DNA of 50,086 bases from a candidate division WOR-3 bacterium (GCA_965649115.1 CBFGJN010000006.1:1-50086), one strand, 5' to 3'. Shown: positions 1 to 41,775, counted from the first letter of the stretch. Made by a program: numbers and translations. The notes: generated from the sequence alone by a model not told the origin.

Positions 1-113
1 GGGGCTCTGCCCCCCAAAGGCAAAAAATGGGTATTTTAAAGCCGAAGGCTTTTATTTAGGGCGGGTGGGAAAATAAAGAAAAATAAATAATTCCAGAATT
101 ATTGGACAAGGCA
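1..113 (+). mobile_element. IS903-like MITE, right part (cut by window edge)
   Basis: Contains AAGCCGAAGGCTT and GGGCGGGTGGG and ends ATTGGACAAGGCA, like the other copies. Confidence 0.85.
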
Positions 114-132
114 TCATAATTAATATATTAAC

Positions 133-143
133 CTTTAAAATTT
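133..143 (+). promoter_or_regulatory. -10-like promoter motif CTTTAAAATTT (example of about 23 copies in the window)
   Basis: TAAAAT at 136-141, 7 nt before ATG 149. The same motif precedes nearly every operon start and two tRNAs. Confidence 0.75.
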
Positions 144-148
144 TCATT

Positions 149-1168
149 ATGGTTCTCAAATTAGAGGAAGGAGAGAAGGCAAAAAGTTCAAAAGCAATAA
201 CACTCGTTAAAGCTATAAGAGATGCTCTTGCAGAAGAAATGAGAAGAGACCCAAGAGTTGTAATTCTTGGCGAAGATGTTGGAAGAAGAGGAGGAGTATT
301 CTTAGCAACGGAAGGTTTAATAGACGAATTTGGAGAAGAAAGAGTTATAGATACCCCATTAACTGAGCTTGGTATTATTGGTGCTGCAATTGGAATGGCA
401 CTTTACGGACTTAGACCTGTTGCGGAAATTCAATTTATAGATTTTGTTTATCCTGGCTTTGATCAGATTGTAAATGAAGCAGCGAAATTTAGATATAGAA
501 GTGGAGGTCAGTTTTATGTTCCACTTGTAATAAGAGCTCCCTATGGAGGAGGTGTAGGAGGAGGATTATATCATTCGCAAAGTCCAGAAGCATATTTTAT
601 TCACACTCCTGGCTTAAAAGTAATTATTCCTTCAACACCTACTGATGCTAAAGGATTATTAAAATCAGCTATAAGAGATGATGACCCTGTTATATTTTTA
701 GAACCTAAAAAAATTTATATGTCTATAAAAGAAGAAGTTCCCGATGACCCTGATTTTACAATTGAAATTGGAAAGGCTAAAAAAGTTAAAGAAGGAAAAG
801 ATATTACAATAATTAGTTATGGATATATGGTTCATGTATGCTTAAAAGCAGCAGAAATGGCACAAAAAGAAGGAATTTCAGTTGAAATTATAGATTTAAG
901 AACACTTTTACCATTTGATAAAGATGCTATTTTAGAAAGTGTTTCAAAAACAGGGAGGGTTATTGTTGTTAATGAAGCTCCAAAAATATGCTCATTTGCT
1001 TCTGAAATTAGTGCTTTTATATCTGAAAGAGCAATAGAATATCTATTAGCGCCAATTAAAAGAATAACAGGTTTTGATACACCATTTCCATATGCTCAAC
1101 AAAAGTACTACATGCCTAATGAATATAGGATTTTAAGAGCAATAAAAGAATTGATGGAATGGAAATGA
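149..1168 (+). CDS. pdhB: 2-oxoacid (pyruvate or branched-chain) dehydrogenase E1 beta subunit
   Basis: GEDVG, DTPLTE, EIQFIDF and HSQSPEA motifs. Confidence 0.9.
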
Positions 1169-2382
1169 AAAAAGCATATTACATAACATTTGGTTGTAAA
1201 ACAAATTTTTATGATACTGAACTTATAAAATCAAATCTTGAAAAAATTGGAATTATAGAAACTGATAATTTAAAAGATGCAGATTATATTATAATAAATT
1301 CTTGTGCTGTAACACAAAAAGCTGAAAGAGATTCAAGACATGCCTTACATAAAGCATTAAAAGAAAAAAAAGATAATGCAAAAGTAATTTTTACAGGTTG
1401 TGTTGCAAAATTAAAAAAATTAAATTTGGCAGATTTTGAAGGTTCAATAAATGAAGTTTTAAAATTTTTCAATATTGAAAATCCAGAAAATTCAATCATT
1501 TATGATTACAAAAGTAGAACAAGGGCAACATTAAAAGTTCAAGAAGGTTGTGATTTTGTATGTTCTTATTGTGCCATTAGAATAGCAAGAGGAAAAAGTA
1601 GAAGTAAAGAACTTGAAAAAATTTTTAAAGAAATGGAAATTTTAAACCAAAGAGGATTCAAAGAGGTTATGATTACAGGAATACAAGTCGGAGATTGGGG
1701 TAAGGAATGGAAGTTAAATTTAGCTTATTTATTAAGAAACCTTTGTGAAAAATTTCCTAACTTTCGTTTTAGATTATCATCCATTTTACCTCTTCATATA
1801 ACTGATGATTTAATTGATTTATATTTAAAATACCCAAAAAATTTAATGCCTCACTTTCATATTTCACTACAAAGTGCTTCAAACAAAGTTTTAAAAGATA
1901 TGAAAAGACCCTATACAATTGAAATTTACAAAAAAATTACTGATAAAATTTTAAATAAAATTGAAAATGTTAGTATTGGAACAGATATCATTGTTGGATT
2001 TCCAACAGAAAGTGATAAAGATTTTTTAGAAACATATAACTTTTGTAAAGAATTTCCATTTAGTTATATTCATGTTTTTGAGTATTCGCCAAGAGAAGGA
2101 ACACCTGCTTATTATTTAAAACAAGTTGTTCCAAATAGAATTATAAAAGAAAGAGTTAAAACACTCTTTGAATTGTCAAAAATTAAAAAGCTTGAATATA
2201 TGAAAAAATTTTTAAACAAGACACTTGAAGTTTTATTTGAAAATTATAAAAATAATTATTGGATTGGAACAAGCAATAACTATCTTAAAGTTAAGGTTCA
2301 ATCAGATGAGAATTTAAAAAATGAAATTTTTAATGTCTTTATTGAAAAGATTGAAAATGATTATTTAATTGGGAGAATATGA
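1165..2382 (+). CDS. mtaB: tRNA methylthiotransferase, MtaB/MiaB-like radical SAM enzyme
   Basis: TFGCKTN, INSCAVT, CxxxCxxC (CDFVCSYC). Start placed at the ATGA overlap with the upstream stop. Confidence 0.85.
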
Positions 2383-3329
2383 AATTTTATATTGATACAC
2401 ATGCTCATTTAAACGATGAAAAATTATATAATAAATTAAATGAAGTTATTGAAAATGCTATATCAAATAATGTAAAGAGAATTTTTTGTGTGGGCTATGA
2501 TATAAATTCTTCAAAAAAAGCTATTGAAATTTCAAATAATTATGATATTGTTTATTCAATTATTGGAATTCATCCAAATAGTATAAATGAAGATGTTTAT
2601 GAAATTGAAAATTTAATTTCAGAAAACGTTATAGCAATTGGAGAAATTGGAATTGATTTTTATTGGAATAAATTTGATAAAGAAATTCAAATAGAAGGAT
2701 TTAAAAGACAAATTGAAATTGCTCAAAAATACGAACTTCCAATTGTTCTACATTTAAGAGATAAAAAAAATTCATTTGAAGTCTTCAATATTGCTCTTGA
2801 AATTCTAAAAAACTATGATTTAAAATCTGTTGTTTTTCATTCATTTAGTGGCAATGAGGAAATTATAAAGAAAATTTTAGATAGAAATTATTTTGTTTCA
2901 TTTTCAGGGATGCTTTTATATAAAAATAAACACATTCAAGATGCTCTTAAAATAACTAATATGAAAAATGTTTTCTTTGAAACAGATAGTCCATATTTAC
3001 CTCCACCACAACTAAATGAAGAATTTAATCAACCTAAAAATGTTATATTAATTTATAAAAAAGCAAGTGAAATTCTAAATAAACCTCTTGATGAAATTAT
3101 TGAAATTGCTTTTGAAAATGTTAATAATTGCTTCAATTTAAAGGAAATTGAAATGAAATTACTTTACGATTGGATTTACGATAATGAATCTTTAACAGAA
3201 AGTTTAAGTGATAATGAAGCAGAAAAATTTTATAGAGAACTTGAAAATTTTATAGAAGAACTATACAACCAAGGATTAACCATTAAGCAAATAAAAGAGA
3301 AAATAAGAAATGAAAAGAAGAAAATTTAG
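2379..3329 (+). CDS. tatD: TatD-family nuclease with a C-terminal extension of about 60 aa
   Basis: IDTHAH, GIHP, GEIGID and ETDSPY motifs. Confidence 0.88.
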   Translation: MKFYIDTHAHLNDEKLYNKLNEVIENAISNNVKRIFCVGYDINSSKKAIEISNNYDIVYSIIGIHPNSINEDVYEIENLISENVIAIGEIGIDFYWNKFDKEIQIEGFKRQIEIAQKYELPIVLHLRDKKNSFEVFNIALEILKNYDLKSVVFHSFSGNEEIIKKILDRNYFVSFSGMLLYKNKHIQDALKITNMKNVFFETDSPYLPPPQLNEEFNQPKNVILIYKKASEILNKPLDEIIEIAFENVNNCFNLKEIEMKLLYDWIYDNESLTESLSDNEAEKFYRELENFIEELYNQGLTIKQIKEKIRNEKKKI

Positions 3330-4341
3330 AACCAATTTAAATAGTCTTTTTGTAATTTTTATAGCTTTTATTATCATTCTAACTTCTTCAATTTTTAGAA
3401 GTTGTAAATTTGATGAAAATTATAAAACAATTGATAGCACAAGCTCAATAAAAGTTTTATTTACAAGATATGATGAAATTATTCCAAATATAAAGTTTTA
3501 TATAGATAACGCTAAAAATAGCATATATTTGGCAGTATTTGAAATTGGAAATGAAGAACTTGCCAAAAGTTTAATAAATGCAAAAAAAAGAGGAATTGAT
3601 GTTAAAGTTATAACTGATGAACAAAACGCAGATTATAAAGCATTAAAAGAAATTATTGAAAATAACATAGAAGTTGTTTTTCAAAATGAAGAAAGTTATA
3701 TGCATCATAAATTTGCTGTTATAGATAGTGAGATTGTAATAACAGGTTCAATGAATTGGACAGATAATGATATATTTTTGAATGATAATAATGTAGTGAT
3801 AATTCGCTCAAAACTACTTGCTAACAATTATTTGAAAGAATTTGAACAAATGTTTAAATATAAGAAATTTTCAAGGAGAAAGGAAAAAATAGGAAATAAT
3901 ATCATTACAATTGATGGATTAAGAATTGAAAATTATTTTTCACCGCAAGATAAACCAAGCAGAAGAATTATTGAAATTATAAACAATTCCAAAAAAACTA
4001 TTGATTTTATGGCTTTTTCATTCACACACGATAGAATAGCAAAAGCTATTATTTCAGCTTATGAAAGAGGAGTTAAAGTTAGTGGTTTATTTGAAAAGAG
4101 ACAAATTAGCAAGTTTTCAGAATATGAAAAATTTAAAAATTTAAGAATGAATGTTTATCTTGATAAAAATCCAAAAAATATGCACAATAAAGTAATAATA
4201 ATTGATAGTTCAATTGTAATAACAGGTTCTTATAATTTTTCATCTAATGCTGATAATGATAATGACGAAAATGTTTTAATAATTTTTTCAAGAGAAATTG
4301 CCTTGAAGTATTTAAATTATTTTAATCGCTTAATTCAATAG
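3310..4341 (+). CDS. Phospholipase D/Nuc-family protein with two HKD domains and an N-terminal membrane anchor
   Basis: HHKFAVID..GSMN and HNKVIIID..GSYN; hydrophobic N-terminus followed by Cys. Confidence 0.88.
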   Translation: MKRRKFRTNLNSLFVIFIAFIIILTSSIFRSCKFDENYKTIDSTSSIKVLFTRYDEIIPNIKFYIDNAKNSIYLAVFEIGNEELAKSLINAKKRGIDVKVITDEQNADYKALKEIIENNIEVVFQNEESYMHHKFAVIDSEIVITGSMNWTDNDIFLNDNNVVIIRSKLLANNYLKEFEQMFKYKKFSRRKEKIGNNIITIDGLRIENYFSPQDKPSRRIIEIINNSKKTIDFMAFSFTHDRIAKAIISAYERGVKVSGLFEKRQISKFSEYEKFKNLRMNVYLDKNPKNMHNKVIIIDSSIVITGSYNFSSNADNDNDENVLIIFSREIALKYLNYFNRLIQ

Positions 4342-5493
4342 GAAATTTTTTGTTAGTTGTTCATCGGGGATTTTCTTTTCTAATGGTAAGTAAATTCTTA
4401 CAGGAATTTCTAATTTTCTTAAATAACGAACCATAAGCGGTCCAACATCACTCCATTCAAGACCACCAAGACCACATCCAAGTGCTGGAACTGCTAAGGA
4501 TTTTATACCTTCTTTTTTATAATTCACTAAAATCCATCTTAAACCTTCCTCTATACCCTCAAAGCTTGCCTTTTCTTTCCAGTGTCTTTTTGTAGGAAAA
4601 AGCAAAAACCAAGTGTATGAGTTATTTTCAGTTAAGGTTTCCGGACTATCTGATAACACTTGATCTAATGATAATTCTCTCTTATATAGAAAAGGTTTTC
4701 CTAATGCTAACTTTTTTGATCTACACAAGTCCTGATATACTACATAAACATCAGGAAACTGATATTTTGCTCTTGAGGCAAGACCCTTACCCATAATTCC
4801 TACCGTATTAACACTTATTGTTAATGTTTGCATCCCTGAAAAAAACATATCTCCTTCAATAATTGTTAAATTTTTTGTAATTTCAATTTCACGATTTGGT
4901 AGGAAAAATAAACTAGGCTCCAAAACAACAGGAATTTTTTTATTTTTTATAATTTTTTTAGCATTTTCTCGAGCAATATCAGTGCCAACATATATCTCTG
5001 AAATATATTCAGGTGAGACATATTTCGGAACTAAACATTCAGCCATAAGTTTTCTTTTAGAACCATCAAAGTCAGACCACCAATCTTTATTAACTTCTTC
5101 TCTTATTTTTTTTAGAATTTTCCTATAATTTTTGTCATTTGAAGAGAAAAAAATTGTAAAATCACTTGCTGCATTTCCATCACTAATATAAACATCTTTC
5201 CTACTTAAAATACCAGGTCTTATCCCAACAATAACTAAATCATTGACACCAATGCCTCCACAAATTATTCTATATAGCATAGCATTTCTTGGTTGAAAGT
5301 ATAGATTAGCAAATTCTCCAAGAGGTTTATCTTTAATATATTTTTTTTGTCTTTTGTTAATAATTTCTTCACTATATATCGCTTTGTATCTTAAATTTCT
5401 TCTTAAAACTTCATTATGAGATAAAATCCCATATTTAAGAATTGAAGCTAAATTTTCAATATGGGTAATGTAATACAAACCTCTCAATTTCAT
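4330..5493 (-). CDS. darTG: DarT (DUF4433) DNA ADP-ribosyltransferase fused to a DarG-type macrodomain
   Basis: N-half has LYYITHIENLASIL, LYFQPRNAMLY, SDGNAAS and MAECLV. C-half has VNTVGIMGKGLA, FPTKRHW and PALGCGLGGLEW. Confidence 0.88.
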   Translation of the reverse strand: MKLRGLYYITHIENLASILKYGILSHNEVLRRNLRYKAIYSEEIINKRQKKYIKDKPLGEFANLYFQPRNAMLYRIICGGIGVNDLVIVGIRPGILSRKDVYISDGNAASDFTIFFSSNDKNYRKILKKIREEVNKDWWSDFDGSKRKLMAECLVPKYVSPEYISEIYVGTDIARENAKKIIKNKKIPVVLEPSLFFLPNREIEITKNLTIIEGDMFFSGMQTLTISVNTVGIMGKGLASRAKYQFPDVYVVYQDLCRSKKLALGKPFLYKRELSLDQVLSDSPETLTENNSYTWFLLFPTKRHWKEKASFEGIEEGLRWILVNYKKEGIKSLAVPALGCGLGGLEWSDVGPLMVRYLRKLEIPVRIYLPLEKKIPDEQLTKNFLLN

Positions 5494-5538
5494 AAGTTAA
5501 AAAATTTTAAAGTATAAGAAAAACTTCTCTGAAATAAA

Positions 5539-5559
5539 GGCTGTGCCTTAGACAAAGCT
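5539..5559. repeat. Collapsed MITE remnant (two TIR-like halves)
   Basis: GGCTGTGCC-TTA-GACAAAGC. Confidence 0.5.
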
Positions 5560-5560
5560 A

Positions 5561-6004
5561 TTAAAATTTTCCAATAAAGTCTTCTATATGGATAAATTTC
5601 AAATTATAGCATTTTGCTAATTGACTATCAACAGTACTATCACCAACAATAATTGAATTTTCTATTTCAATTCTATATTTATATATAATTTTCTTCAAAA
5701 AATAGCATTTTGGTTTTCTACAAGGACAATTTTCATTTGGATGATGAATACAATAAAAAACTTCTCTAAACTTTATTGGATAAATTAAATTTTCAAGGTG
5801 TCTATGAATTTCCATTAAATTTATTAAGGAATAATATCCTCTTTTTATGCCTGATTGATTACTTATTAGAAAGAACTCATAAGTTTTATAAAATTTAAGC
5901 ATTTTTTCTTTTATTCCTTTTTTTAACTTTATTTGCCAAGGGTATTTTGGATAATGAGAATTTTCAATTATCGTTCCATCTCTATCAAAAATAATTGCTT
6001 TCAT
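5561..6004 (-). CDS. gmhB: HAD-IIIA phosphatase, D,D-heptose-1,7-bisphosphate phosphatase-like
   Basis: FDRDGT, SNQSG, CxHHPxxxCxCRKP and VGDS. Start at the second Met (MKAIIFD). Confidence 0.8.
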   Translation of the reverse strand: MKAIIFDRDGTIIENSHYPKYPWQIKLKKGIKEKMLKFYKTYEFFLISNQSGIKRGYYSLINLMEIHRHLENLIYPIKFREVFYCIHHPNENCPCRKPKCYFLKKIIYKYRIEIENSIIVGDSTVDSQLAKCYNLKFIHIEDFIGKF

Positions 6005-6716
6005 AAATCTTACCTTCATTTACAATTTCAATATCAGACCATAAAATTGCTTTATCTTTCAAAATTTCTATAAATATTGGTTTTTTGGATTTTGGAATTA
6101 CTTCAATATAATCTAACTTTTTCTCCTTTGAGTAATTTAAAGCACAGGCTAACGAGCCTGTAGCACAACTTAGAGCTTCCTTCATGTGGCCATACTCCCA
6201 GGTTCTAATAGCAATTTTTCCTAATTCAATTTCACTATATATATTAAAGTGCTCATCAGAACTTTTAAAAAATTCATTAGCTTCATTTTCCAAATCAAAA
6301 TTATCTATATCCTCTACTCTTCTTACATGATGTTTAACACCAATCTCAAAATTTTCAAATTCCAAACCTATGAAAGCTAACTTTTCTTTTAATTCCTTAA
6401 TTATTGTCTTCTTTATACCAACATCAGTTTCAATAATCATTTCATTTTTTTCATTTCCACAAATATAATTTAGAAATGATAATGACCTTACTGCATGACC
6501 ACAAAATGGAACATCATAACCCATATAGTTTATATATAAAAATTTGAAATCGTAATTCTTTGAAGGTAAATTTGTAATAATCCCATCAGCTCCTATGTTT
6601 CTTCTATCACATACTTTTCTTGCAAAATCATATGGATTTTCTATTTTTTTAAAATTATCATAACTTATAGCAATAAAATCATTTCCACAAGCATCCATCT
6701 TTCTATAATAAATCAT
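5985..6716 (-). CDS. DapF-fold epimerase/racemase, diverged
   Basis: KMxxxGNDF, GADG, PFCGH, RTWEYG and SCATG; both catalytic Cys present. Confidence 0.75.
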   Translation of the reverse strand: MIYYRKMDACGNDFIAISYDNFKKIENPYDFARKVCDRRNIGADGIITNLPSKNYDFKFLYINYMGYDVPFCGHAVRSLSFLNYICGNEKNEMIIETDVGIKKTIIKELKEKLAFIGLEFENFEIGVKHHVRRVEDIDNFDLENEANEFFKSSDEHFNIYSEIELGKIAIRTWEYGHMKEALSCATGSLACALNYSKEKKLDYIEVIPKSKKPIFIEILKDKAILWSDIEIVNEGKIYESNYF

Positions 6717-6752
6717 ATTGAAAATTTTAAAGTTTAGAAGGCAAATAAATAA

Positions 6753-6930
6753 TGCTTTGTCCAGTAATTATTGTCAATCACCTGATAATCAATAACTTAT
6801 AAAATTTTTAGGGAAATTATAGATTTAATGGGGGGATTTTAGGGGGGCGAAGTTTAAGCCGAAGGCTTAAATATAGGGTGGGTGGGAAAATATAGAAATA
6901 ATCTATATTTCCGAATTACTAGACAAAGCA
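6753..6930 (+). mobile_element. IS903-like MITE, 178 bp, flanked by 9-bp TSD AATAAATAA
   Basis: TIRs TGCTTTGTCCAGTAAT / ATTACTAGACAAAGCA; AATAAATAA at 6744-6752 and 6931-6939. Confidence 0.9.
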
Positions 6931-6939
6931 AATAAATAA

Positions 6940-7143
6940 TGCTTTGTCCAATAAATAATGATAAGTCCTTGATTATCAATAGTTTATAAAAATTTTAAAG
7001 AAGTTATAGATTTAATGGGGGGTCTAATGGGGGGCAAAGCCCCCCAAAGCCTAAAAATGGGCATTTATAAGCCGAAGGCTTATTATTAGGGTGGGTGGGA
7101 AAAATAAGAAAAATAAATAATTCCAGAATTATTAGACACAGCA
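6940..7143 (+). mobile_element. IS903-like MITE, 204 bp, in tandem with the previous copy
   Basis: TIRs TGCTTTGTCCAATAA / TTATTAGACACAGCA; AATAAATAA again at 7144-7152. Confidence 0.9.
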
Positions 7144-7178
7144 AATAAATAAATAATTGAGGCATTAAAATTTTAAAA

Positions 7179-8015
7179 ATGATTTTTATTCTTGTTTTAG
7201 GACTTATTCTTGAATTTGTTCTATACTTTTCATTAAAAGATTTGAATATAAATCCAACAATTTTTAAAATTGGTGAATTACAAATCAGATATTATGGATT
7301 AATGTACATCATAGCTATTGGCCTTGCTTTGTTCTTTTTAAGAAGGGATTTTGAAAAGTTTAAAATAAATATAAATTATAAGGAGTTTGAAGATGCTGCA
7401 TTTTGGACAATTATTATAGCAATAATTGGGGCAAGAATTTATCATGTTATTCCTAATTGGGATTACTACTCTAAAAATCCTTTTGAAATTATAGCAATTT
7501 GGCATGGAGGTCTTGCTATTTATGGTGGAATAATTGGGGGTCTAATTGGTGGATATATTATCTGTAAAATTAAAAAATGGAATTTTTTAAAATTAGCTGA
7601 TATTGTAATGCCTTATTTGGCACTTGGTCAAGCCATTGGAAGGTGGGGAAACTTCTTTAATAAAGAAGCTTATGGACCTCCAACAAATTTACCATGGGCA
7701 ATATATATTCCTCCTGAAAATAGGATAAAAGGTTTTGAAAATTACGATTATTTTCACCCTACATTTTGGTACGAAAGTATTTTAAATTATATAAACTTTG
7801 TTATTCTTCTATTTTTCAGAAATTCAAAATTTTATAAAAATGATGGTCAAGTTTTATCGCTATATATATTAAACTACGGAATAATTAGATTTTTCATTGA
7901 ATTTCAAAGATTTGATACAGATAAATTTCTTGGAATAAGAATTGCTCACATATTCTCAATTATTGCTATTATTATTGGTATTTTAGGGTTTCTTATTTCA
8001 AGTAGAAGAAAATGA
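7179..8015 (+). CDS. lgt: Prolipoprotein diacylglyceryl transferase
   Basis: IRYYGL, GARIYH, WHGGL, GRWGNFFN and HPTFWYES. Confidence 0.95.
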   Translation: MIFILVLGLILEFVLYFSLKDLNINPTIFKIGELQIRYYGLMYIIAIGLALFFLRRDFEKFKININYKEFEDAAFWTIIIAIIGARIYHVIPNWDYYSKNPFEIIAIWHGGLAIYGGIIGGLIGGYIICKIKKWNFLKLADIVMPYLALGQAIGRWGNFFNKEAYGPPTNLPWAIYIPPENRIKGFENYDYFHPTFWYESILNYINFVILLFFRNSKFYKNDGQVLSLYILNYGIIRFFIEFQRFDTDKFLGIRIAHIFSIIAIIIGILGFLISSRRK

Positions 8016-9172: not shown

Positions 9173-9252
9173 CTCAAAAACGGGGTATTTATAAAACTTT
9201 GCTTCATTTTCAGAGTGGATACAGATATTAAACTTTAAAATTTTATTACTTT

Positions 9253-10815: not shown

Positions 10816-10849
10816 TTAGAAATTTTAAAGTTTAACTTAAAATATATAT

Positions 10850-11053
10850 TGCTGTGTCCAAAAATTCTGGAATTATTTATTTTTCTTTATTTTCCCACCC
10901 GCCCTAAATAAAAGCCTTCGGCTTTAAAATACCCATTTTTTGCTTTGGGGGGCGAAGCCCCCCTAATAATCCCCCCATAAAATCTATAATTTCCTCAAAG
11001 CTTTTATAAGTCATTGATAATCAAGGATTTAACAATAATTATTGGACAAAGCA
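10850..11053 (-). mobile_element. IS903-like MITE, 204 bp, TSD AATATATAT
   Basis: TIRs TGCTGTGTCCA / TGGACAAAGCA; AATATATAT at 10841-10849 and 11054-11062. Confidence 0.9.
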
Positions 11054-11062
11054 AATATATAT

Positions 11063-11180
11063 TGTTGTACTTTTCCCACCCACCCTGATAATAAGCCTTT
11101 GGCTTAAAAATACCCCTATTTAAGTTCTTTCTACTAGACAAAGCAAAATATATTGCCCTGTCTAATAATTCTAAAATTTG
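11063..11180 (-). mobile_element. Two degenerate MITE copies (11063-11145 and an end at 11154)
   Basis: CCCACCCACCC, AAGCCTTTGGCTT, TAGACAAAGCA, spacer AAATATAT, then TGCCCTGTCTAATAAT. Confidence 0.75.
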
Positions 11181-11194
11181 GAAAAATAAGAATT

Positions 11195-13852: not shown

Positions 13853-13889
13853 GGATTGAAAATTTTAAAGTTATCAAATTTAATAAGTT

Positions 13890-14057
13890 GGCTTTGTCTA
13901 GTAATTTGGAAATATAGATTATTTCTTATTTTTTTCCCACCCACCCTATAAATAAGGCTTTGCCCCCCATTAGATCCCCCATAAAATCAATAGTTTTATT
14001 GAAATTTTCGTAAGTCATTGATAATCAAGCATTTAGCAATAATTACTGGACAAAGCA
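13890..14057 (-). mobile_element. IS903-like MITE, 168 bp, TSD TAATAAGTT
   Basis: TIRs GGCTTTGTCTAGTAAT / ATTACTGGACAAAGCA; TAATAAGTT at 13881-13889 and 14058-14066. Confidence 0.9.
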
Positions 14058-14066: not shown

Positions 14067-14167
14067 TGCATTGTCCAATAATCCTTTATTTTCCCACCCG
14101 CCCTGAAATTAAGCCCAAGTGTAGAAAATATAGAAAAATAAATACTTTCAAAATTCCTAGACAAGTT
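14067..14167 (-). mobile_element. Degenerate MITE copy
   Basis: TGCATTGTCCAATAAT ... CCCACCCGCCC ... CTAGACAAGTT. Confidence 0.7.
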
Positions 14168-14220
14168 AATTTTTTATCCTTTAAAATTTTTAATTTGTTG
14201 TCAAATCACTTTTTAAATTA

Positions 14221-17644: not shown

Positions 17645-17717
17645 AGCCGTTGGCCGGACTCGAACCGGCAACCTGGGCATTACGAATGCCCCGCTCTGCC
17701 AATTGAGCTACAACGGC
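17645..17717 (-). tRNA. tRNA-Thr(CGT), CCA not encoded
   Basis: Acceptor stem GCCGTTG/CAACGGC; anticodon arm GGGCA-TTCGTAA-TGCCC; GTTCGAG T-loop. Confidence 0.95.
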
Positions 17718-17753
17718 AAGTTCTAAATTTTAAAGTATTAAAAAGTTTTCTTG

Positions 17754-17840
17754 TGCTTTGTCTAGTAATTCTAAAATTATTTATTTTTTGCCCACCCATC
17801 CTTAAATTTAAAAACCCCTTATAAAATCAATAATTCCAAT
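17754..17840 (-). mobile_element. Partial MITE
   Basis: TGCTTTGTCTAGTAATTCT then CCCACCCATCC. Confidence 0.75.
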
Positions 17841-24672: not shown

Positions 24673-24709
24673 GGTTTGAAAATTATAAAGGATAAAAAAA
24701 TATGATCAT

Positions 24710-24750
24710 TGCTGTGTCTAAGAATTCTATCTGCCCCCTTGGAAAAAGCA
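24710..24750. repeat. 41-bp internally deleted MITE
   Basis: TGCTGTGTCTAAGAATT ... TTGGAAAAAGCA. Confidence 0.6.
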
Positions 24751-27560: not shown

Positions 27561-27879
27561 TGCTTTGTCCAATAAATAATTTAAATAATTGACACGAAGA
27601 AATTGTTTGTTTTATGGGGGTTCTTTAAAGGGAGCGAAGCCTCCCTTACCGAAATATGGGGATTTTAAAGCCAAAGGCTTAAATATAGGGTGGGTGGGGA
27701 ATTGAGGAATAATTATAATTTCAGAATTACTTTGTCCAATAAATAATTTAAATAATTTATAGGGGGTATTGATTAGGGGGGCAAAGCCCCCCTGACATAA
27801 AATGGGATCTTTAAAGGCAAAGCCTTGAACACAGGGTGGGTGGGGAAAATATATACTCTCAGAATTATTGGACAAAGCA
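27561..27879 (+). mobile_element. Two fused MITE copies (27561 to about 27729; about 27728 to 27879)
   Basis: TGCTTTGTCCAATAAATAAT, second CTTTGTCCAATAAATAAT at 27730, end ATTGGACAAAGCA. Confidence 0.85.
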
Positions 27880-27913
27880 AGAGTTTGAAAATTTATGCTT
27901 TAAAATTTCGGTG

Positions 27914-29098: not shown

Positions 29099-29115
29099 AT
29101 AAATTAAATAAAATT

Positions 29116-29841
29116 ATGAGATTTAATGAAACAGAGAAAAAGATAAATTCAATTATTGCGGCTTACAATAAACTAGTAGGGAATATAGAATCAGAAGCGT
29201 TAAACTCTGAGGAAAGAGCTTATGGTGGAATAATAAGAGCTGGTAAAGGAAAACTTGTAGAAAGTATAGGTAAGGCATTATTAGAAATTGCAGCAGAAGA
29301 ATTAAATATAAATCAACATCTTCGTTTTGTAAACAAAACTATTAAAATCCCTCTTAAGCACGATTATATTAATCGGATAAAAAATCCTGAGGTTAAAGAT
29401 TACATATCAAAAAATTTAGATAAAATTTTTTATAGAATAAAGCCGGATATTCAAGTTTATTTAGATGACGAGTTTAAAATTTCAATAGAATGTAAGGCTT
29501 ATACAGAGATTGCAATGCTTAAACGTATTTTAGTAGATTGCACCCTAATAAAACAAATTTTTCCGAATGTATCTTTTGTTTTACTCCAATTGGAAAGTCA
29601 GCTTGGAGGAGATTATTCTCAATACACTCTTGGAAAATTTGGAAGTCATCCTACACATACTTTATTTTCTTATTTTGATGTTGATTTAACTATTATCACT
29701 TTATTAAAAGGAGAAAGAAAAGTTGATCAACCAATTCACAAACCAAAATATTTTAAACCGCTAGAAAGACAAAGCTTAATTGAAGCAATAAATTGTTTTA
29801 AAAATTTGCTGCTTTGTCAAATAAGTAATTTAAACAGTTAA
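29116..29841 (+). CDS. Putative type II restriction endonuclease, PD-(D/E)xK
   Basis: KPDIQVY...IECKAY; directly downstream of the MTase. Confidence 0.75.
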   Translation: MRFNETEKKINSIIAAYNKLVGNIESEALNSEERAYGGIIRAGKGKLVESIGKALLEIAAEELNINQHLRFVNKTIKIPLKHDYINRIKNPEVKDYISKNLDKIFYRIKPDIQVYLDDEFKISIECKAYTEIAMLKRILVDCTLIKQIFPNVSFVLLQLESQLGGDYSQYTLGKFGSHPTHTLFSYFDVDLTIITLLKGERKVDQPIHKPKYFKPLERQSLIEAINCFKNLLLCQISNLNS

Positions 29842-29990
29842 TTATCAATAACTTATGGGAACTTTAAAGATCTTTTTATTTTATGGGGGCTTATTGGAAG
29901 GGGGCAAAGTTTTATAAGCCAAAGGCTTGATTATAGAGCGGTTGGGAGAATAAAGAAAAATAAATGTTTTTAGAATTATTTGACAAAGCA
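29810..29990 (+). mobile_element. IS903-like MITE, 181 bp
   Basis: TGCTTTGTCAAATAA / TTATTTGACAAAGCA perfect inverted ends; AAGCCAAAGGCTT inside. Confidence 0.85.
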
Positions 29991-30009
29991 ATACATTCTT
30001 GAAATTTTT

Positions 30010-30072: not shown

Positions 30073-30104
30073 ACCGAAAATAATGCTTTAAAATTTCAAA
30101 ACTT

Positions 30105-31274: not shown

Positions 31275-31283
31275 TAAAAGTGT

Positions 31284-33233: not shown

Positions 33234-34038
33234 TTTGAATTAACATTTCATAACCACCAATTAAAGAAGCATATTCACCAAGCTCAGATTTTTTAACAAT
33301 TACATTACCTTTTAAGTTTAAAAATTTACTAAAAATATCAAATGCTTTTGAAACACCCCCTCCTAAAACAATTACATCAGGTTCAAATATCATAATCAAA
33401 TTATTTATTAAAATTGAAAGTTTATTTGAAAACCATTTCCAAAATTCAATAGCTAAATGATTGTTGTTTTTAGCAAGCTCATAAATTTCAACAGCTTTTA
33501 ATTTTCTTTTAAAAACCTTTTCAAAATAATTTGGAAAATATGCTTCTCCAATATAAGCTTCAATACAACCCATATTTCCACAATTACAAAGTGGTCCATT
33601 TTCATCTATAATGATATGACCAATTTCTCCTGCTCCCCCCTTCCCTCTATATAGCTTTCCATCTATGATAATTCCACCTCCAACACCTGTTCCAATAGTA
33701 ATTCCAATAACATTTTTATAATTCCTAATTCTTGTCCATTCTCCAAGTGTAAATAAATTAGCATCATTATCTATAATAACTTTTTTGTCAGTTCTTAAAA
33801 TTAACGATTTTTCTTGATATGTTTTAACATTAGGAGCAAAGATAATTTTATTATTTTTAACAATTCCTGCAAATCCAATAGCAATTGCATAGAATTGAAA
33901 TTTCTTTATGATTTCATTTAATTGTTCTTCAAGATCGTCTTTATTTGTTTTTTCAATATAAAATTCTTTAACTTCATAGTTTTCAACAATTCCATATTTT
34001 ATATAACTTCCTCCAACATCAAAACATAATGCTCTCAT
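33223..34038 (-). CDS. ROK-family sugar kinase
   Basis: DVGGS, NDAN, GTGVGGG, GEIGH and CNCGNMGCIE. Confidence 0.93.
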   Translation of the reverse strand: MRALCFDVGGSYIKYGIVENYEVKEFYIEKTNKDDLEEQLNEIIKKFQFYAIAIGFAGIVKNNKIIFAPNVKTYQEKSLILRTDKKVIIDNDANLFTLGEWTRIRNYKNVIGITIGTGVGGGIIIDGKLYRGKGGAGEIGHIIIDENGPLCNCGNMGCIEAYIGEAYFPNYFEKVFKRKLKAVEIYELAKNNNHLAIEFWKWFSNKLSILINNLIMIFEPDVIVLGGGVSKAFDIFSKFLNLKGNVIVKKSELGEYASLIGGYEMLIQNDN

Positions 34039-36215: not shown

Positions 36216-36243
36216 ATTTTAAATTTTAAAGTTAAATGATTAT

Positions 36244-36400
36244 TGCTGTGTATAGTAATTGGTGTGTCTAATAATTCTGGAATCCACCCTGAATATAAGC
36301 GGACGGCTTATAACTACGCCCCCCCATTAAAACCCCCTCTTTTTTGTTAATAATCAATAACTTATCAGTTATTTCTCGCCTTGTGTCTAATAATCCTAAA
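36244..36400 (-). mobile_element. Cluster of degenerate MITE fragments
   Basis: TIR-like ends at 36244, 36260 and about 36380; GCCCCCCCATTAAAACCCCC; AATCAATAACTTA. Confidence 0.65.
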
Positions 36401-36445
36401 ATTATAATCATTCCTGTTTTTCTTCAACTTTAAAATTTCTAATTT

Positions 36446-36519
36446 GCGCCCATAGCTCAACTGGATAGAGCGGCGGACTACGAATCCGCAGGTTGGGGGT
36501 TCAAGTCCCTCTGGGCGCG
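36446..36519 (+). tRNA. tRNA-Arg(ACG), CCA not encoded
   Basis: Acceptor stem GCGCCCA/TGGGCGC; anticodon arm GCGGA-CTACGAA-TCCGC; GTTCAAG T-loop. Confidence 0.95.
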
Positions 36520-37460
36520 TTTAAAATATCTTCCTTCTTTATAGGATAAGTTCCAATATGTCTAATAACAATACTTGCACAAAAGTTAGCAAATTTCAAA
36601 ATTTTTTCAATTTCTAAATTACACAAAATACCAAATCCCAAAACCGCAACCACAGTATCACCTGCTCCCGAAACATCATATACTTCACTTTCATAAGTTG
36701 GAACATGTAAAACCTTATATTTATCAATATAACTTAAACCCTTTTCCGAACGAGTAATCACTATACTTTCAAAATTAAATTTTTCAATGGCTAATTTTCC
36801 CATTTTCTCTAAAATATAATTCTCATTTTCAATTGTTTCATTTAAACCTTCTGATAATTCTTTAACATTTGGTGTTATCATATTAGCATTTCTATATTTG
36901 TTCCAATTCTTACCTTTTGGGTCAATAATTGTAAATTTTGACTTACTTATAATGAATTGAGAAATTTTTTCAGAGATTAAACCTTTGTTATAATCAGAAA
37001 TTATTGTTAAATCATAATCATCTATAACATTTTCCAAAATTCCTAAAATTCTTTGTTCCAAATTTTTATCAATAGGATTATTATTTTCAAAATCAATTCT
37101 AATTAAATGTTGGTTTTTTGAAACAACTCTTATTTTTGTTGTTGTAATTCTACTATCTCTAATTATAAAATTCGTTTTAATTTTGTTGTTTTCAAATAAT
37201 TTTAATAATTCATATCCATTCTCATCATCTCCAATAATTCCAATAACATCAACCTCAATTCCTAAATTTTTCAAGTTTAAAGCAGTATTTCCAGCACCTC
37301 CAATCCTATTTTCTATTCTTTTTACATTAACAACAGGAACAGGGGCTTCAGGTGATATTCTATCAACATTTCCAAAAAAGTACTTATCAAGCATTAAATC
37401 ACCAATAACTAATGCTTTCTTGTTTGGAGGATTGTTTAGAAACTCAATTATCTCTTCCAT
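36501..37460 (-). CDS. rfaE1: D-glycero-beta-D-manno-heptose-7-phosphate kinase (HldE kinase domain)
   Basis: GDLMLD, RISPEAPVPVV, SDYNKG and DVSGAGDT. Confidence 0.93.
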   Translation of the reverse strand: MEEIIEFLNNPPNKKALVIGDLMLDKYFFGNVDRISPEAPVPVVNVKRIENRIGGAGNTALNLKNLGIEVDVIGIIGDDENGYELLKLFENNKIKTNFIIRDSRITTTKIRVVSKNQHLIRIDFENNNPIDKNLEQRILGILENVIDDYDLTIISDYNKGLISEKISQFIISKSKFTIIDPKGKNWNKYRNANMITPNVKELSEGLNETIENENYILEKMGKLAIEKFNFESIVITRSEKGLSYIDKYKVLHVPTYESEVYDVSGAGDTVVAVLGFGILCNLEIEKILKFANFCASIVIRHIGTYPIKKEDILNAPRGT

Positions 37461-38017
37461 TCTTTACTTCCTGGTTTTTCAATAGGGATTTTTAAAGCAC
37501 ATAATTCACAATTTTCAGGATTATAAGTTTTAACTTTAACTTTAATCAAACTATAAAAAGGATATTCAAATTTTACATTTTCACTTCTATCAACTAAACA
37601 ACCAATCCCAACAATATTACCATTATAACTTTTAACAACTTCTATAACTTCTCTTGTTGAAGAACCCGTTGTAATAACATCCTCAATAATTAAAACATTT
37701 TCCCCTTTATTTATATAGAAATCTCTTCTTAATTTCATAATACCATTTTCTCTTTCAGTAAAAATTGCCCTAGCATTTAAAAACCTTGCAGTTTCATAAG
37801 CAACGATAATAGCTCCAATAGCAGGACCAATAACAACATCAATTTTATAATTTTTAAAATAATTTGCCAAATTTTTACACAAAAATTCACTATATTTTGG
37901 ATATTGTAGGACTAATGCACTTTGAAAATATGTGTCAGAATGAAGACCAGACGATAATAGAAAATGACCTCTTTTAATAGCACCTGTTTCTTCATAGATT
38001 TTTAAAATTTCATTCAT
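37448..38017 (-). CDS. pyrE: Orotate phosphoribosyltransferase
   Basis: GHFLLSSGLHS and IEDVITTGSS. Confidence 0.95.
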   Translation of the reverse strand: MNEILKIYEETGAIKRGHFLLSSGLHSDTYFQSALVLQYPKYSEFLCKNLANYFKNYKIDVVIGPAIGAIIVAYETARFLNARAIFTERENGIMKLRRDFYINKGENVLIIEDVITTGSSTREVIEVVKSYNGNIVGIGCLVDRSENVKFEYPFYSLIKVKVKTYNPENCELCALKIPIEKPGSKEWKR

Positions 38018-39002
38018 TTATTAAGCTCCTTATTTGTTCAATTCTTGATTTAAAGTAATCATTATTTTTTTCTATGTTTAAAGCCTTTTGTAGCCAATTT
38101 AAAGCTTCTTTATAATTTCCAAGTGATTCATAACATTTGGCAACTGTATCCATAATATTAGCATCCTTTGGTGATAATTTATTTGCTTTTAATGAAAATT
38201 CAAGGCCAACTTCTTGAAATATATTTCTTGAACATAATTCCCAAGCTATATTATTATAACTATCAGAGCTTATGTCCTTTGAAAATTTCATATTTTGTAA
38301 AAGGTACCTTATATTGTTTTCTAAATTCTTACTTGAAAGCCTAATATAAGAAACTAACATATATTCATATTGCCAACTTTTATAAATCCTTTTTAAATCT
38401 TCAATTGGCTGTTTGCTATCATCAATTCTAATTTCAACAAGTCTATCATCAATTCCATCATATCCACCATCCTTTAATTTAACAATAACTGCACAAGATT
38501 GTCTTCCTCTTCTATCACCACCTGCTTTATCACCTGCTTGTAATGATAAAATTATTCTTTCGGCTAATGGCTTATTTGTGCTATTTAAAAATGCTTTTTC
38601 CATCTCTTTTAAAACACTTTCAGATTTTAATAAATTTCCAAGAATAATATATCCCCTTGAGACAATATGACCTGCATAAGGAAAATTTTTATTTCCCGTA
38701 AAAGCATAACCATCTCCATTTATATTTAAAACCCCTACTTGTCTCAATTCAAATAAACTATCACTTGCTCTCAATATATTAATTATTTCTTTTGGAGAAT
38801 AACCTAATTTTAAAAGTTCAAGTCCTAATTTTCCAAATTTCACATTAACAAAACTTTGTGTCGCAACAGCTCCATATTCTGGGTCTATCCAAGGAACTAA
38901 AAAACCAACACCTAAAACCTTTGAACAACTTCCAATCCCAATTTCCTTTGTAATAGTATCAACAGCAATAATGCTAAATGTTGAAAATAAAAAATGTATC
39001 AT
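38010..39002 (-). CDS. DUF1028 Ntn-hydrolase-like protein with C-terminal TPRs
   Basis: TFSIIAVD, AVATQ and GGDRRGRQS; YNNIAW..DT TPR pattern. Confidence 0.88.
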   Translation of the reverse strand: MIHFLFSTFSIIAVDTITKEIGIGSCSKVLGVGFLVPWIDPEYGAVATQSFVNVKFGKLGLELLKLGYSPKEIINILRASDSLFELRQVGVLNINGDGYAFTGNKNFPYAGHIVSRGYIILGNLLKSESVLKEMEKAFLNSTNKPLAERIILSLQAGDKAGGDRRGRQSCAVIVKLKDGGYDGIDDRLVEIRIDDSKQPIEDLKRIYKSWQYEYMLVSYIRLSSKNLENNIRYLLQNMKFSKDISSDSYNNIAWELCSRNIFQEVGLEFSLKANKLSPKDANIMDTVAKCYESLGNYKEALNWLQKALNIEKNNDYFKSRIEQIRSLINE

Positions 39003-39235
39003 AAAGGATAAACAATCCTTGTGTCCGTATCTCTAACCATTCCCGTAGCATAAATATCTTCTATAATTTTCTTTATTTCTTCAAATGTCTTAAATTCAGC
39101 TATTGCTATAATGTCTATATTACCGAAAACACCATCCGCTGATATAACACCTTTAACTTTTCTTATTTGTTCAACAGCTTTTTTCATATCTTCCCTATAA
39201 AATGATGTTAATCTAATGAAAATGTAAGCTTTCAT
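38999..39235 (-). CDS. Lrp/AsnC ligand-binding domain protein
   Basis: KAYIFI, VFGNIDII and TDTRIV. Confidence 0.85.
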   Translation of the reverse strand: MKAYIFIRLTSFYREDMKKAVEQIRKVKGVISADGVFGNIDIIAIAEFKTFEEIKKIIEDIYATGMVRDTDTRIVYPL

Positions 39236-39271
39236 AGTTTGAAATTTTAAAGTGCTTTAAATAATACTTAT

Positions 39272-39323
39272 TGCCTTGTCCAATGGCTTTAAGATGCCCT
39301 TATAATTTATTCTAGACAAAATC
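39272..39323. repeat. Short MITE remnant
   Basis: TGCCTTGTCCAAT (exact reverse complement of 101-113) ... TTCTAGACAAAA. Confidence 0.55.
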
Positions 39324-40052
39324 TTTATCTTTTAGAGTTAAAGATGCCAAAAATAGACAAAAAATAATATAAAATATAAGCATAGAAACATTCTTCCAAA
39401 TATAAATATAATCAACATTTGAACTTACCAATTCAAGCAATATATTAACTGCATAATGAAAAGGATAGAATTTTCCTATTATTTGAGCCCATATTGGCAA
39501 ATCTTGATAATCTATTAAAAGTCCTGTAAAGAATACAGAAGGGACAATAATAAGCGGAATAAATGGAATAACATGCCCTTCATGCTTGGCAAATGTTGAA
39601 ATAAATGTTCCAAGAAGAACTGAAACAATAGCCAAAAGCCAAATAATTAAATATAATTGAAAGAATTTCCAAAATGAATAATCTATATTAAAAAGCAATT
39701 TTAACTCGATAATAACAATAATTGATTGAATAGTTGAGAGAAAAGAATAAGCGAGTGCATAACCTAAAATTAAATCCCATTTACTAACACCATTTATAAA
39801 TAATCTTTCAAGTGTTCCCCTTGTTCTTTCTTGAACTAATGCTATTGAAGATAATATAAATGATAAGAAATGGACAACAAAGGCTGAAATTGGAACAACA
39901 TATCTTAATTTCATAGGCATTTGTGGTAATGTGTCAAAAAAAATTTTAAAAAGAAAAATGATAAGTAATGGAACTACTACTGACAAAGCAAAAAACCTTC
40001 TATCCCTCCTTATTTGATTTAAAATTCTTTCTGAAAGTATAAAAACTATCAT
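39312..40052 (-). CDS. ABC-2 type exporter permease
   Basis: ERTRGTLERL and six hydrophobic segments. Confidence 0.9.
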   Translation of the reverse strand: MIVFILSERILNQIRRDRRFFALSVVVPLLIIFLFKIFFDTLPQMPMKLRYVVPISAFVVHFLSFILSSIALVQERTRGTLERLFINGVSKWDLILGYALAYSFLSTIQSIIVIIELKLLFNIDYSFWKFFQLYLIIWLLAIVSVLLGTFISTFAKHEGHVIPFIPLIIVPSVFFTGLLIDYQDLPIWAQIIGKFYPFHYAVNILLELVSSNVDYIYIWKNVSMLIFYIIFCLFLASLTLKDKDFV

Positions 40053-40842
40053 TTATAATAAAGTCTAACTTTAAAGCTCATATTTTCAATAAAGTTTATG
40101 TCCTTATTTGTAGAAATTCTCAATATAACATATCTCTTATCTTCATTTATATCGTAATAAGCGGAGTTCTCAATCATATGGGCTTTTGAAATAACTTTTC
40201 TTCCATCTTTTGTGATAATCAGGACCTTGTTTGGAACTTTTATCTTACTTAAAAAATCCTCCTTAAAGAATGCCCTTATATAAAAGCTATCTGGGCAAAC
40301 TATAAAAGCATAATTATTAGGGACATTAAACTGACCTTCACTTATGTTCTTTTCCATAATTATTCCATCTATTGGAGATTTTATATAAATTTGAGAAAGT
40401 TGATTATTTATTTGTTTAATTTCGTAATTTAATTTTTCAATTTGAATTTTTGAAAGCTCATATTCTTTTTGTGCTTTTATATAGTTGTTTTCAGCCTTAA
40501 TTAAATCAAACTTTGAAATACTATTAGCTGAATATAAAATTTTTGCCTTTTCGTATTCATCTTTTATCATATTTAATTTGGATTTTAATTCATTTTCTAG
40601 TACATTCTTTCTAATAAGTAGGTTTTCACTATCCAAAATAGCTAAAATTTGGTCTTTTTTGACATAATCAAATTTATTCACAAAAATTTTTAAAACTTTT
40701 TCATTTAAATTTGAATTTATGAAAAATCTATCGCAGGATAAATAAGCCTTATCTGTTTCAATGTAGTTTAGTGAATTGATATAAAGAAACCAAAAATGAT
40801 AATAAAAACCAAAACGAAAACAATTGGGATAATTTTTCTCAT
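40049..40842 (-). pseudogene. HlyD/EmrA-like membrane fusion protein with a 1-nt frameshift
   Basis: ATG 40842 (MRKIIPIVFVLVFIIIF) is one base out of frame with WFLY..YIETDKAY..IKSPIDG; the shift maps to the A5 run at 40792-40796. Confidence 0.8.
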
Positions 40843-41672
40843 TCCCCTATCTCTCCTTTAAAAATTGAGACAATAACCTCATCTAAATTTGGCATTTTAA
40901 AACTTAGATTTTTTACTTTCTCATGCAAACCAAATTGTTTCAGAAAATCAGCAATAATTTTTGGATTATTTTCTAAAATTTTAGAAATTTTATCATTTTC
41001 AAGCTCTAATTCAATTTTTAAATTTCAAATTTTTAATATATTTTCAGGTTTATCAACTATTAGCATTTTTCCTTTATAAATTAGTCCAAGTAAATCACAT
41101 TTGAAAGCTTCATCCATAAGATGTGTACTTACAAAAATCGTTTTTCCTTCTTCTTTTAGCCTTAAAAAATAATTCCAGAATTTTTCTCTTAAATGAGGGT
41201 CAAGAGCAGCAGTTGGCTCATCTAAAAACAATAATGTTGGATTATGAACAATTGAACAAGCAAATGATACCCTCCTCTTTAAACCTCCTGATAATTTATA
41301 AACTTCAACATTTCTTTTATTTTCAAGTTCAGCAAATTCTATAACCCATTCGTAATCCTTAACAGAATGTAATTTAGCAAAAAATTTTATATTTTCTTCA
41401 ACTGATAAATCTTCATATAATGCAAAATCCTGTGGCATATATCCTATAATTTTTATAAGTTTTGAGCGCTCCTTAACAGGTTCTAAATCAAAAACTTTAA
41501 TCTCTCCATAACTTGGCTTTAAAGAACCAACAAGCAGTTTTATAAATGTTGTCTTTCCACTACCATTAGGACCAATAAGTCCGAAAATTGTTCCACTTTC
41601 TATTTTCAAACTGACATTGTCTAATGCTTTAAATGTCCCATAAAATTTTGTTAGGTTATTTACCAAAATCAT
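40839..41672 (-). pseudogene. ABC ATPase with an internal in-frame TGA
   Basis: GPNGSGKT, LSGG and LDEPT; the frame continues past TGA 41025-41027 to PNLDEVI..GE-stop, overlapping the next ATG. Confidence 0.75.
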
Positions 41673-41714
41673 TTTTTAAAATTGAGAATTTCAAAGCTCG
41701 TTCCACCTGACAAT

Positions 41715-41775
41715 TGCTGTGTCTAGTAATTAGGCTATGGGGGGGCTTTGCCCCCCATTAAAACCCCCAATAAAA
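41715..41775 (-). mobile_element. Partial MITE
   Basis: TGCTGTGTCTAGTAATT and GGGGGGCTTTGCCCCCC. Confidence 0.75.

Follow-up and report, generated by a model that had tools for sequence, protein, structure and literature searches.

Insertion of an IS903-type element and its MITE at a fixed distance and orientation from host promoters in a WOR-3 bacterium

Why do so many copies of a small mobile element end, in one orientation, the same few bases short of a promoter? The question is raised by a stretch of 50,086 nt (the window), contig C6 in the assembly of a candidate division WOR-3 bacterium (G000; 1.85 Mb, 99 contigs, 27.6% GC), along which copies of a MITE (miniature inverted-repeat transposable element) stand just upstream of -10-type hexamers. 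An earlier note on the window had proposed promoter-targeted transposition by an element of IS5/IS903 type. We follow the element through the window's own genome, its sister species G002 (88% identical, same genus) and three further species of the genus (G001, G003 and G004), and find it very probable that an IS903-type insertion sequence (IS) and its 205-bp MITE choose their target by the host promoter box, (g/a)CTTTAAAATTT.

Distance and orientation to the promoter box

Read directly from the ...GACAMRGCA end of each element to the hexamer, all ten gaps of 21-23 nt listed in the earlier note are correct (Table 1), and the 18-20 nt between end and hexamer differ at every site, as it had said. 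Genome-wide we mapped 431 complete right (GGGTGGG-side) ends and 308 complete left ends against a strict box, TTTAWAAT. The right ends form a main register at 20 nt (2 ends), 21 nt (39), 22 nt (110) and 23 nt (4), and a second register at 12 nt (2), 13 nt (4), 14 nt (23, the mode), 15 nt (10) and 16 nt (5). At 21-22 nt stand 149 of the 431 (34.6%), where random placement in DNA that is neither open reading frame (ORF) nor MITE predicts 0.39% (binomial p ~1e-240); the corresponding figure for left ends is 3/308. Orientation follows the same rule, the GGGTGGG-proximal end facing the promoter as proposed: 199 right ends and 11 left ends lie at 12-23 nt. Classed by what they face, 198 right ends have a strict box at 12-23 nt, 37 have a box with at most two mismatches in that range, 99 are stacked 7-12 nt (90 at exactly 9) from the left terminal inverted repeat (TIR) of the next copy, 7 lie at a contig end and 90 fall into none of these classes.

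What is the box? The window holds 35 copies of CTTTAWAAT where 10 are expected, and throughout the genome 602 TTTAWAAT boxes have a start codon (of an ORF of at least 70 codons) no more than 16 nt downstream, mostly 6-10 nt past the hexamer, a proximity that indicates leaderless messages. tRNA genes start ~8 nt downstream of a box; at 17645-17735 in the window this spacing would give a primary transcript with almost no 5' leader. The motif itself was derived from 318 MITE-free promoters, which hold zero sequence information upstream of about -19 and have no -35 element (minimal examples in the window lie at 133-149, 6716-6732 and 7163-7181). In the four other species of the genus, orthologous promoters keep box and gene while the upstream DNA differs, and divergent boxes in related species are only 9-16 nt apart. 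Position before start codons and tRNAs, together with conservation, thus suggests that the box is a promoter. Since these promoters lack a -35 element and divergent boxes come so close together, there is nothing at -35 to protect, and the earlier reading of 23 nt as the upstream edge of a sigma70 -35 position has to be given up. A MITE adjoins (at most 80 nt upstream) 284 of the 602 recognisable promoters, about half of them.

Neither the 9-bp duplication nor the distal flank holds any motif (n=16), so the box is read from one side only, and we infer that the transpososome is positioned by it from that side; a symmetric (palindromic) target motif is rejected on the same 16 sites, the distal side having no motif. 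The single gap of 23 nt, at 6753, belongs to the left end of a two-copy stack between two divergent promoters, a site that the earlier note had recognised as shared by both. Both copies in this stack (6753-7143) point to the promoter at 7166, and with divergent boxes ~34 nt apart before insertion, geometry alone places the opposite promoter, 6729, at 23 nt from a left end. Four further ends had been set aside as outliers, mostly degenerate or promoter-distal; this holds for 27561, a promoter-distal left end, and for 5539, a TIR scrap, whereas 14167 (14 nt) and 36244 (15 nt) belong to the second register.

This register, with the right end 14-15 nt from the hexamer, is discrete and has a sequence preference of its own. 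TG precedes the box at 14 of the 23 sites at exactly 14 nt, as against 31/155 sites at 20-23 nt and 36/318 MITE-free promoters, and both 14-nt sites sampled in G002 also have it. With TG in front, the box opens with TGCTTT, the hexanucleotide with which the element's inverted repeat also begins, and right end, 9 nt and TGCTTT follow one another just as they do in stacks. An empty orthologue in G002 already carries the TG, which is thus native to the site. The enrichment of TGCTTT hints that end recognition by the transposase may contribute to target capture in the 14-nt register. We considered two other origins of this spacing. Loss of a proximal copy by microhomology deletion, between the TGCTTT of its TIR and the CTTT of the box, is rejected for at least one site (on contig C24), whose empty G002 orthologue reads TGCTTTAAAAT. 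Lack of room, hinted at by three orthologue comparisons, was also set aside, since genome-wide the pre-insertion spacers show no difference between the two registers (Mann-Whitney p 0.92).

Copies also accumulate in stacks, whose members share orientation in 106 of 111 cases. The promoter-proximal copy is closer to the consensus than the next copy in 62 of 84 cases (Wilcoxon p 2e-8), although part of this comparison is biased, only stacks with a complete right end at position 0 having been admitted. In the stack at 6753-7143 the spacer AATAAATAA recurs on all sides, yet the two copies, 6753-6930 and 6940-7143, are only 69% identical. The stacks fit repeated insertion into the same 9 bp beside the promoter.

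The MITE and its parent insertion sequence

The 205-bp consensus, built from 75 copies of 200-205 bp, has inverted termini (TGCTTTGTCCAATAA... and ...TTAGACACAGCA), a palindrome and an inward-facing box-like motif in its left part, and two GC-rich hairpins and GGGTGGGTGGG in its right part, where the subterminal 40 nt are very AT-rich. A profile of the element finds 724 matches that cover 96,255 nt of G000, which is 5.2% of the genome and ~41% of the DNA that is left when ORFs of 100 aa or more are set aside. Of 203 full-length copies, 90 carry a perfect 9-bp target duplication and 104 carry one with no more than a single mismatch, and comparisons shifted by 1-2 nt revealed no duplications in the same copies. 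Because such direct repeats flank them, the copies are products of transposition. The element has the features of a MITE, being short, without an ORF, present in many copies and equipped with the TIRs and the duplication length of an IS. Its right end shares only the terminal ~18 nt with that of the IS, which means that simple internal deletion of the present IS does not account for the MITE. Truncated copies keep right ends far more often than left ends.

Some further observations concern the interior and the decay of the MITE. The box-like motif, at consensus positions ~43-58, matches the place of the transposase promoter in the IS and faces the GC-rich hairpins; judging by this arrangement, MITE copies may be transcribed from within. 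A hairpin acting as intrinsic terminator was rejected, a simple terminator scan of 6650-7250 (two MITE copies) giving 0 sites. An Rfam scan of the window returned three tRNAs only, and no family match for the MITE. At some promoters of G002 only a truncated MITE stands, its right TIR deleted and a small GC hairpin or a GGGTGGG tract left 10-30 nt from the box (L032, C18:8900-9160; L031, C87:1-450), which shows copies decaying in place.

Which element is the parent? The same 124 nt, closing with 18 nt that are the right TIR of the MITE, stand at 16 contig tips of G000, and ten tips end in a common IS left end. Counted by hand, the 16 IS right ends divide into 11 that have a box, or a one-base variant of it, at 21-22 nt, one that has a 2-mismatch pseudo-box at that offset, three that stand 9 nt from the TIR of another copy, and one at a site with only CTTTA. 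Six IS copies could be paired across contigs by perfect 9-bp duplications. A seventh pair joins the end of the window (49961-50086) to the end of contig C3: here the IS inserted into the last 9 nt (AGACAAAGC) of a preceding, older MITE that stood at 12-13 nt, and the insertion restored the distance of 21-22 nt.

The left end of this IS copy (49961-50023) carries a host-type box, five bases, an ATG and an opening frame, MGKVNWQEYNKELVRRGEIW..., whose 56-aa N-terminus is 92% identical to the start of P0002, a 300-aa protein from public metagenomes. P0002 contains the domains PF01609 (DDE_Tnp_1, 88.9 bits) and PF13737 (DDE_Tnp_1_5, 73.5 bits), its C-terminus matches a frame ending ~85 nt before the IS right tip in G000, and it is ~30% identical over 96-97% of its length to the annotated transposases of ISVa1 and ISAba10. 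By eye, the inverted repeat TGCTTTGTCCAATAAATA agrees with that of ISAba10, GGCTTTGTTGCATAAATA, at 14/18 positions. The TIRs of ~18 nt are of the GGCTTTGTTG..ATAAAT type, duplications of 9 bp flank MITE copies and the six paired IS copies, and the PF01609 + PF13737 transposase comes in through P0002. Going by these sequence features, the parent is an IS5-family, IS903-type IS of ~1.05 kb with at least 16 near-identical copies in G000, and the family assignment of the earlier note stands.

No PF01609 or PF13737 match was found in G000 or the four other genomes of the genus, and no multi-copy transposase ORF. Metagenome contigs searched for the exact pattern of the IS right end, and species-representative genomes scanned with P0002, gave no match either. 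Eight metagenome loci do hold P0002 relatives (61-88% identity), and all six of their readable right ends obey the rule, five at 21-22 nt and one at 14 nt.

A 1.5-kb TIR-flanked element of G002 was tried as parent and rejected, since its gene is TnpB-related and not a DDE transposase and the element is absent from G000. This element, 1,533 bp long (contig C87, L034:87-1619), has the same IS903-type inverted repeats, a perfect 9-bp duplication, AGCCTTAAA, and an end of right-inverted-repeat (IRR) type 22 nt from a promoter box. Its gene encodes 456 aa (TIGR01766, 58 bits, cut-off 32), from which the zinc-finger stretch is apparently missing (by eye). From its sequence, it looks like a cargo-carrying derivative mobilised in trans.

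The same repeats shape the assembly. At least 16 plus 10 contig tips in G000 end in the IS and another 18 end inside young MITE copies; the IS and MITE repeats are the main cause of the genome breaking into 99 pieces, and six or seven contig joins are possible from the 9-bp duplications.

Table 1. Element copies and promoter boxes in the window (end/hexamer pairs give the position of the element end and that of the hexamer)
Feature	Coordinates	Strand	Remarks
MITE copy cut by contig start	1..113	+	profile positions 92-205; right end 113, hexamer 136-141 (113/136, 22 nt); ATG 149
Promoter box CTTTAAAATTT	133..143	+	leaderless gene 149-1168
Box of divergent gene (ATG 6716)	6724..6732	-	23 nt from left end of distal MITE (6753/6729)
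Older 178-bp MITE, distal in two-copy stack	6753..6930	+	flanked by AATAAATAA
Full-length MITE, proximal in stack	6940..7143	+	9-bp duplication AATAAATAA; hexamer 7166-7171 (7143/7166, 22 nt); ATG 7179; insertion site empty in G002
Full-length MITE	10850..11053	-	right end 10850, box 10822-10830 (-) (10850/10827, 22 nt)
Degenerate MITE fragment	11055..11124	-	stacked distal to copy 10850..11053
MITE	13891..14057	-	right end 13890/13891, box 13862-13870 (-) (13890/13867, 22 nt)
MITE right-end fragment	14124..14167	+	14 nt from hexamer of box 14179-14187; second register
MITE right-end fragment	17754..17806	-	box 17727-17735 (-) (17754/17732, 21 nt), which drives tRNA 17645-17717
Solo right TIR remnant	24710..24730	-	box 24682-24690 (-, TATAAT variant) (24710/24687, 22 nt)
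Distal MITE of a stack	27561..27731	+	left end at 27561
Proximal MITE	27753..27879	+	profile positions 69-205; right end 27879 (27879/27901, 21 nt)
Old MITE copy, then further degenerate copy	29810..29990	+	no adjoining box
Degenerate MITE	36244..36372	-	right end 36244, 15 nt from hexamer of box 36223-36231 (-); second register
Right TIR remnant	39272..39290	-	box 39244-39252 (-) (39272/39249, 22 nt)
MITE remnant	41715..41806	-	right end 41715, variant hexamer TGAAAT at 41693 (41715/41693, 21 nt)
Two stacked MITE copies	49655..49960	+	49655-49794 and 49803-49960
Left end of autonomous IS903-type IS	49961..50086	+	TIR starts at 49961; interior runs off contig

What sets the distance, and alternatives to target choice

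How might such an element find its site? The model that we propose has an IS whose inverted ends (TGCTTTGTCCAATAA...) measure 18-20 nt, which encodes a DDE transposase of 300 aa and which duplicates 9 bp of its target. It would make a staggered 9-bp cut and set the edge nearer the promoter 10 bp upstream of the box's C. The end of the element would then stand 21-22 nt from the hexamer TAAAAT, and in every case the IRR, on the GGGTGGG side, would be turned toward the promoter. In a minor register, favoured when TG precedes the box, the 9-bp target would lie 2 bp from the box and the end 14-15 nt from the hexamer. With the hexamer at -12 to -7, the target occupies -34 to -26 (major) or about -26 to -18 (minor). 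A later copy would insert on the promoter side of an older one, in the 9 bp already used, and head-to-tail stacks would grow in this way with the youngest copy nearest the promoter. Genes would seldom be hit, and the promoter would stay intact because nothing is needed upstream of about -19.

The distance itself may be set by contact of the transpososome with the box DNA, a reading to which we give a chance a little short of even. It is also conceivable, if rather doubtful, that the plain 300-aa IS903-type transposase reads the promoter consensus directly, using in part the surface that recognises its own ends (TGCTTT...). The existence of two registers would then be accounted for, and if the idea is true, one small protein would give oriented, base-precise safe-harbour insertion at hundreds of promoters. 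A serious competitor, although we lean against it, keeps the targeting and moves the ruler: the transpososome would dock on promoter-bound RNA polymerase holoenzyme or sigma (through region 4 or the C-terminal domain of the alpha subunit, neither of which has -35 DNA to grip at these promoters), as Ty3 does with TFIIIB. The main-register target lies where sigma region 4 would sit, and the promoters have no -35 motif though region 4 of the sigma factor is ordinary-looking (read by eye). The occupied boxes are those of best consensus, with C at -15 in 94-100% of occupied promoters and 57% of MITE-free ones; this could reflect polymerase occupancy, an argument weakened by the false promoters that the MITE-free set probably includes. 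Ranged against a polymerase ruler are the two registers, 8 bp apart and thus not a helical repeat, the enrichment of the element's own TGCTTT at the 14-nt register, which points to DNA recognition by the transposase, and one IS copy whose offset is correct for a 2-mismatch pseudo-box, which itself lies 16 nt upstream of a real one. The authors of PMC3942029, in the excerpted text of that paper, drew the Ty3 analogy for TnGBS. That another host factor or DNA shape sets the distance we consider unlikely.

Does the pattern arise at insertion, or is it carved out afterwards? The earlier note had named a broad distribution truncated near 21 nt as the outcome that would speak for selection, and the distribution is not of this kind, with only 8/431 right ends at 24-60 nt and 155 at 20-23 nt. 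Beyond promoter-adjacent arrays, on their distal side, the nearest ORF stands at widely varying distances, with a median of 42 nt where the neighbour is co-directional (90 cases) and of 90 nt where it is divergent (63 cases), so positions further upstream are usually available yet unused. Promoter integrity cannot set the limit at 21 nt, because foreign DNA is tolerated from about -19; with nothing at -35 to protect, and with a register at 14-15 nt in existence, selection for integrity would allow insertions much closer. The comparison of empty sites that the note had suggested agrees with target choice: orthologous promoters in the sister species lack the element, and those of the window genes at 149, 7179 and 6716 are element-free in G002, G001, G003 and G004. 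One promoter was hit independently, at 14 nt in G000 and at ~20 nt in G002. Placement is independent of copy age: of 24 young full-length copies, which match some other copy at 97% identity or more, 20 adjoin a box directly and 22 either do so or are stacked, and for old copies (less than 88% identical) the latter count is 97 of 109. Among 16 MITE right ends sampled in G002, ten lie at 21-23 nt, three at 14-15 nt and one at 18 nt, and two have no box.

Could copies instead be kept by positive selection, the element end serving as a promoter part or insulator (UP-like AT-rich DNA, a -35-like TAGACA, a terminator hairpin)? The very AT-rich right subterminal 40 nt of the MITE would lie at -40 to -75, the TAGACA/TGGACA of the TIR resembles TTGACA and stands 18-19 nt from the hexamer in the 14-nt register, and the preferential retention of right ends by truncated copies suits such a role. 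In the main register, however, 27 nt would separate TAGACA from the hexamer; the rule holds equally for the right end of the IS, an end that is not AT-rich; orthologous promoters in four related species work without the element; and the terminator scan of two copies was empty. The benefit would also have to arise at ~200 independent promoters within the age of near-identical copies, and we regard this explanation as very improbable.

Random insertion followed by purifying selection is harder still to credit. ORFs of at least 100 aa cover 87.4% of this dense genome, so most random insertions would be lethal and intergenic ones would survive, but that would not yield so narrow a distribution with tens of nucleotides to spare upstream, nor a limit short of the point, about -19, from which promoters tolerate foreign DNA, nor a fixed orientation; and the youngest MITE copies and the 16 identical IS copies are already patterned. 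Least credible of all is a mobile promoter, with the box as part of the mobile unit, or a spread of the repeats by recombination or gene conversion: an inward box-like motif does lie near the left end of the element and is the transposase gene promoter in the IS, but a 9-bp duplication that differs at each site separates TIR and box, element-free species conserve the box and downstream gene while the 19 nt upstream differ, and stacked neighbours are often as diverged as random pairs (the 6753-7143 stack is an example).

Besides the bias in the stack comparison, several points weigh against targeting by the box as we describe it. Neither a box nor a neighbouring copy accompanies 63 of the 431 right ends (15%; a separate filter applied to all 431), so targeting by the box is a strong preference and not absolute; weak boxes at these off-target sites were considered and rejected, the 63 ends showing no enrichment at the expected offset. 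Targeting is read from copies fixed in assemblies rather than from observed transposition, and the promoter status of the box from position and conservation rather than from mapped transcript starts. The ORF map is crude (at least 100 aa only), and what looks like free room upstream may contain decayed copies or small genes. In G000 the IS interior is unassembled, its transposase being known from the 92%-identical protein of another data set. In size and domains that transposase resembles ordinary IS903-group enzymes, with no extra reader domain visible, and direct DNA reading and a polymerase tether fit it alike.

Comparison with known systems and biological meaning

Placement at a measured distance has well-known precedents. 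Tn7 employs a dedicated target-selector protein (TnsD) and a single site, attTn7, and Ty3 is a yeast retroelement that docks on TFIIIB at RNA polymerase III start sites. The present element differs from both in that a single 300-aa transposase appears to be its only encoded protein, and in that hundreds of sites are used. A length of ~1.05 kb fits that transposase only and leaves no place for the separate TnsD/TniQ selector and AAA+ regulator of Tn7-like elements, the interior in G000 not being seen directly.

Tn7 and Ty3 were cited as precedents in the earlier note, but the list was incomplete, for promoter insertion by TnGBS, ISLre2 and ISKra4 elements is published. As described in the excerpt of PMC3942029, TnGBS, ISLre2 and some ISKra4 elements insert in one orientation 15-17 bp upstream of the -35 of sigma-A promoters, with the IRR beside the promoter, and their transposases are Mutator-like. 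A 2023 paper cites, in the passage concerned, two TnGBS papers as examples of IS that target motifs upstream of promoters (PMC10433421). The element studied here shares with that group, as far as the excerpt portrays it, a DDE transposase, conserved orientation, the IRR at the promoter, a fixed distance upstream of housekeeping-sigma promoters, avoidance of genes and an intact promoter. It differs in its transposase, which is of PF01609 + PF13737, IS5/IS903 type where theirs belongs to the unrelated Mutator-like superfamily, with a signature motif tied to the targeting of promoters; in its landmark, a -10-type hexamer (21-22 nt) of -35-less promoters where theirs is the -35; and, set against the same excerpt, in a MITE multiplied to ~700 matches, in stacks and in a second register at 14-15 nt. 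In behaviour it resembles the TnGBS group without being part of it; by its sequence features it belongs to the IS903 group.

With ISAba10 and ISVa1 of that group it has in common a ~300-aa DDE_Tnp_1_5 + DDE_Tnp_1 transposase, 18-nt ends, 9-bp duplications and a length of ~1 kb. The target preference of IS903 itself, in work by Hu and Derbyshire in 1998, is said to be only loose and roughly palindromic, and a full-text literature search turned up no paper in which IS5/IS903 elements or their MITEs home on promoters. The MITE resembles the Correia elements of Neisseria and MITEAba12, which are likewise short, non-coding, TIR-bounded, mobilised in trans and abundant between genes, and can affect neighbouring genes; to our knowledge these are not placed at one fixed distance and orientation from promoters.

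What follows for the biology of such elements? Until now a single superfamily of bacterial transposases has been documented to home on promoters, and the same behaviour in a second, unrelated and very well-studied family, at promoters that lack a -35 element, would mean that this safe-harbour strategy has evolved more than once. The element would also provide a minimal system, consisting of one 300-aa protein, 18-nt ends and an 11-nt landmark, for asking how a DDE transposase measures distance and direction from a promoter. For the bacterium, it explains the architecture of the intergenic DNA, 96 kb of which it occupies beside close to half of the recognisable promoters. Annotators of genomes from this lineage can rely on an element end to show where promoters and true start codons lie.

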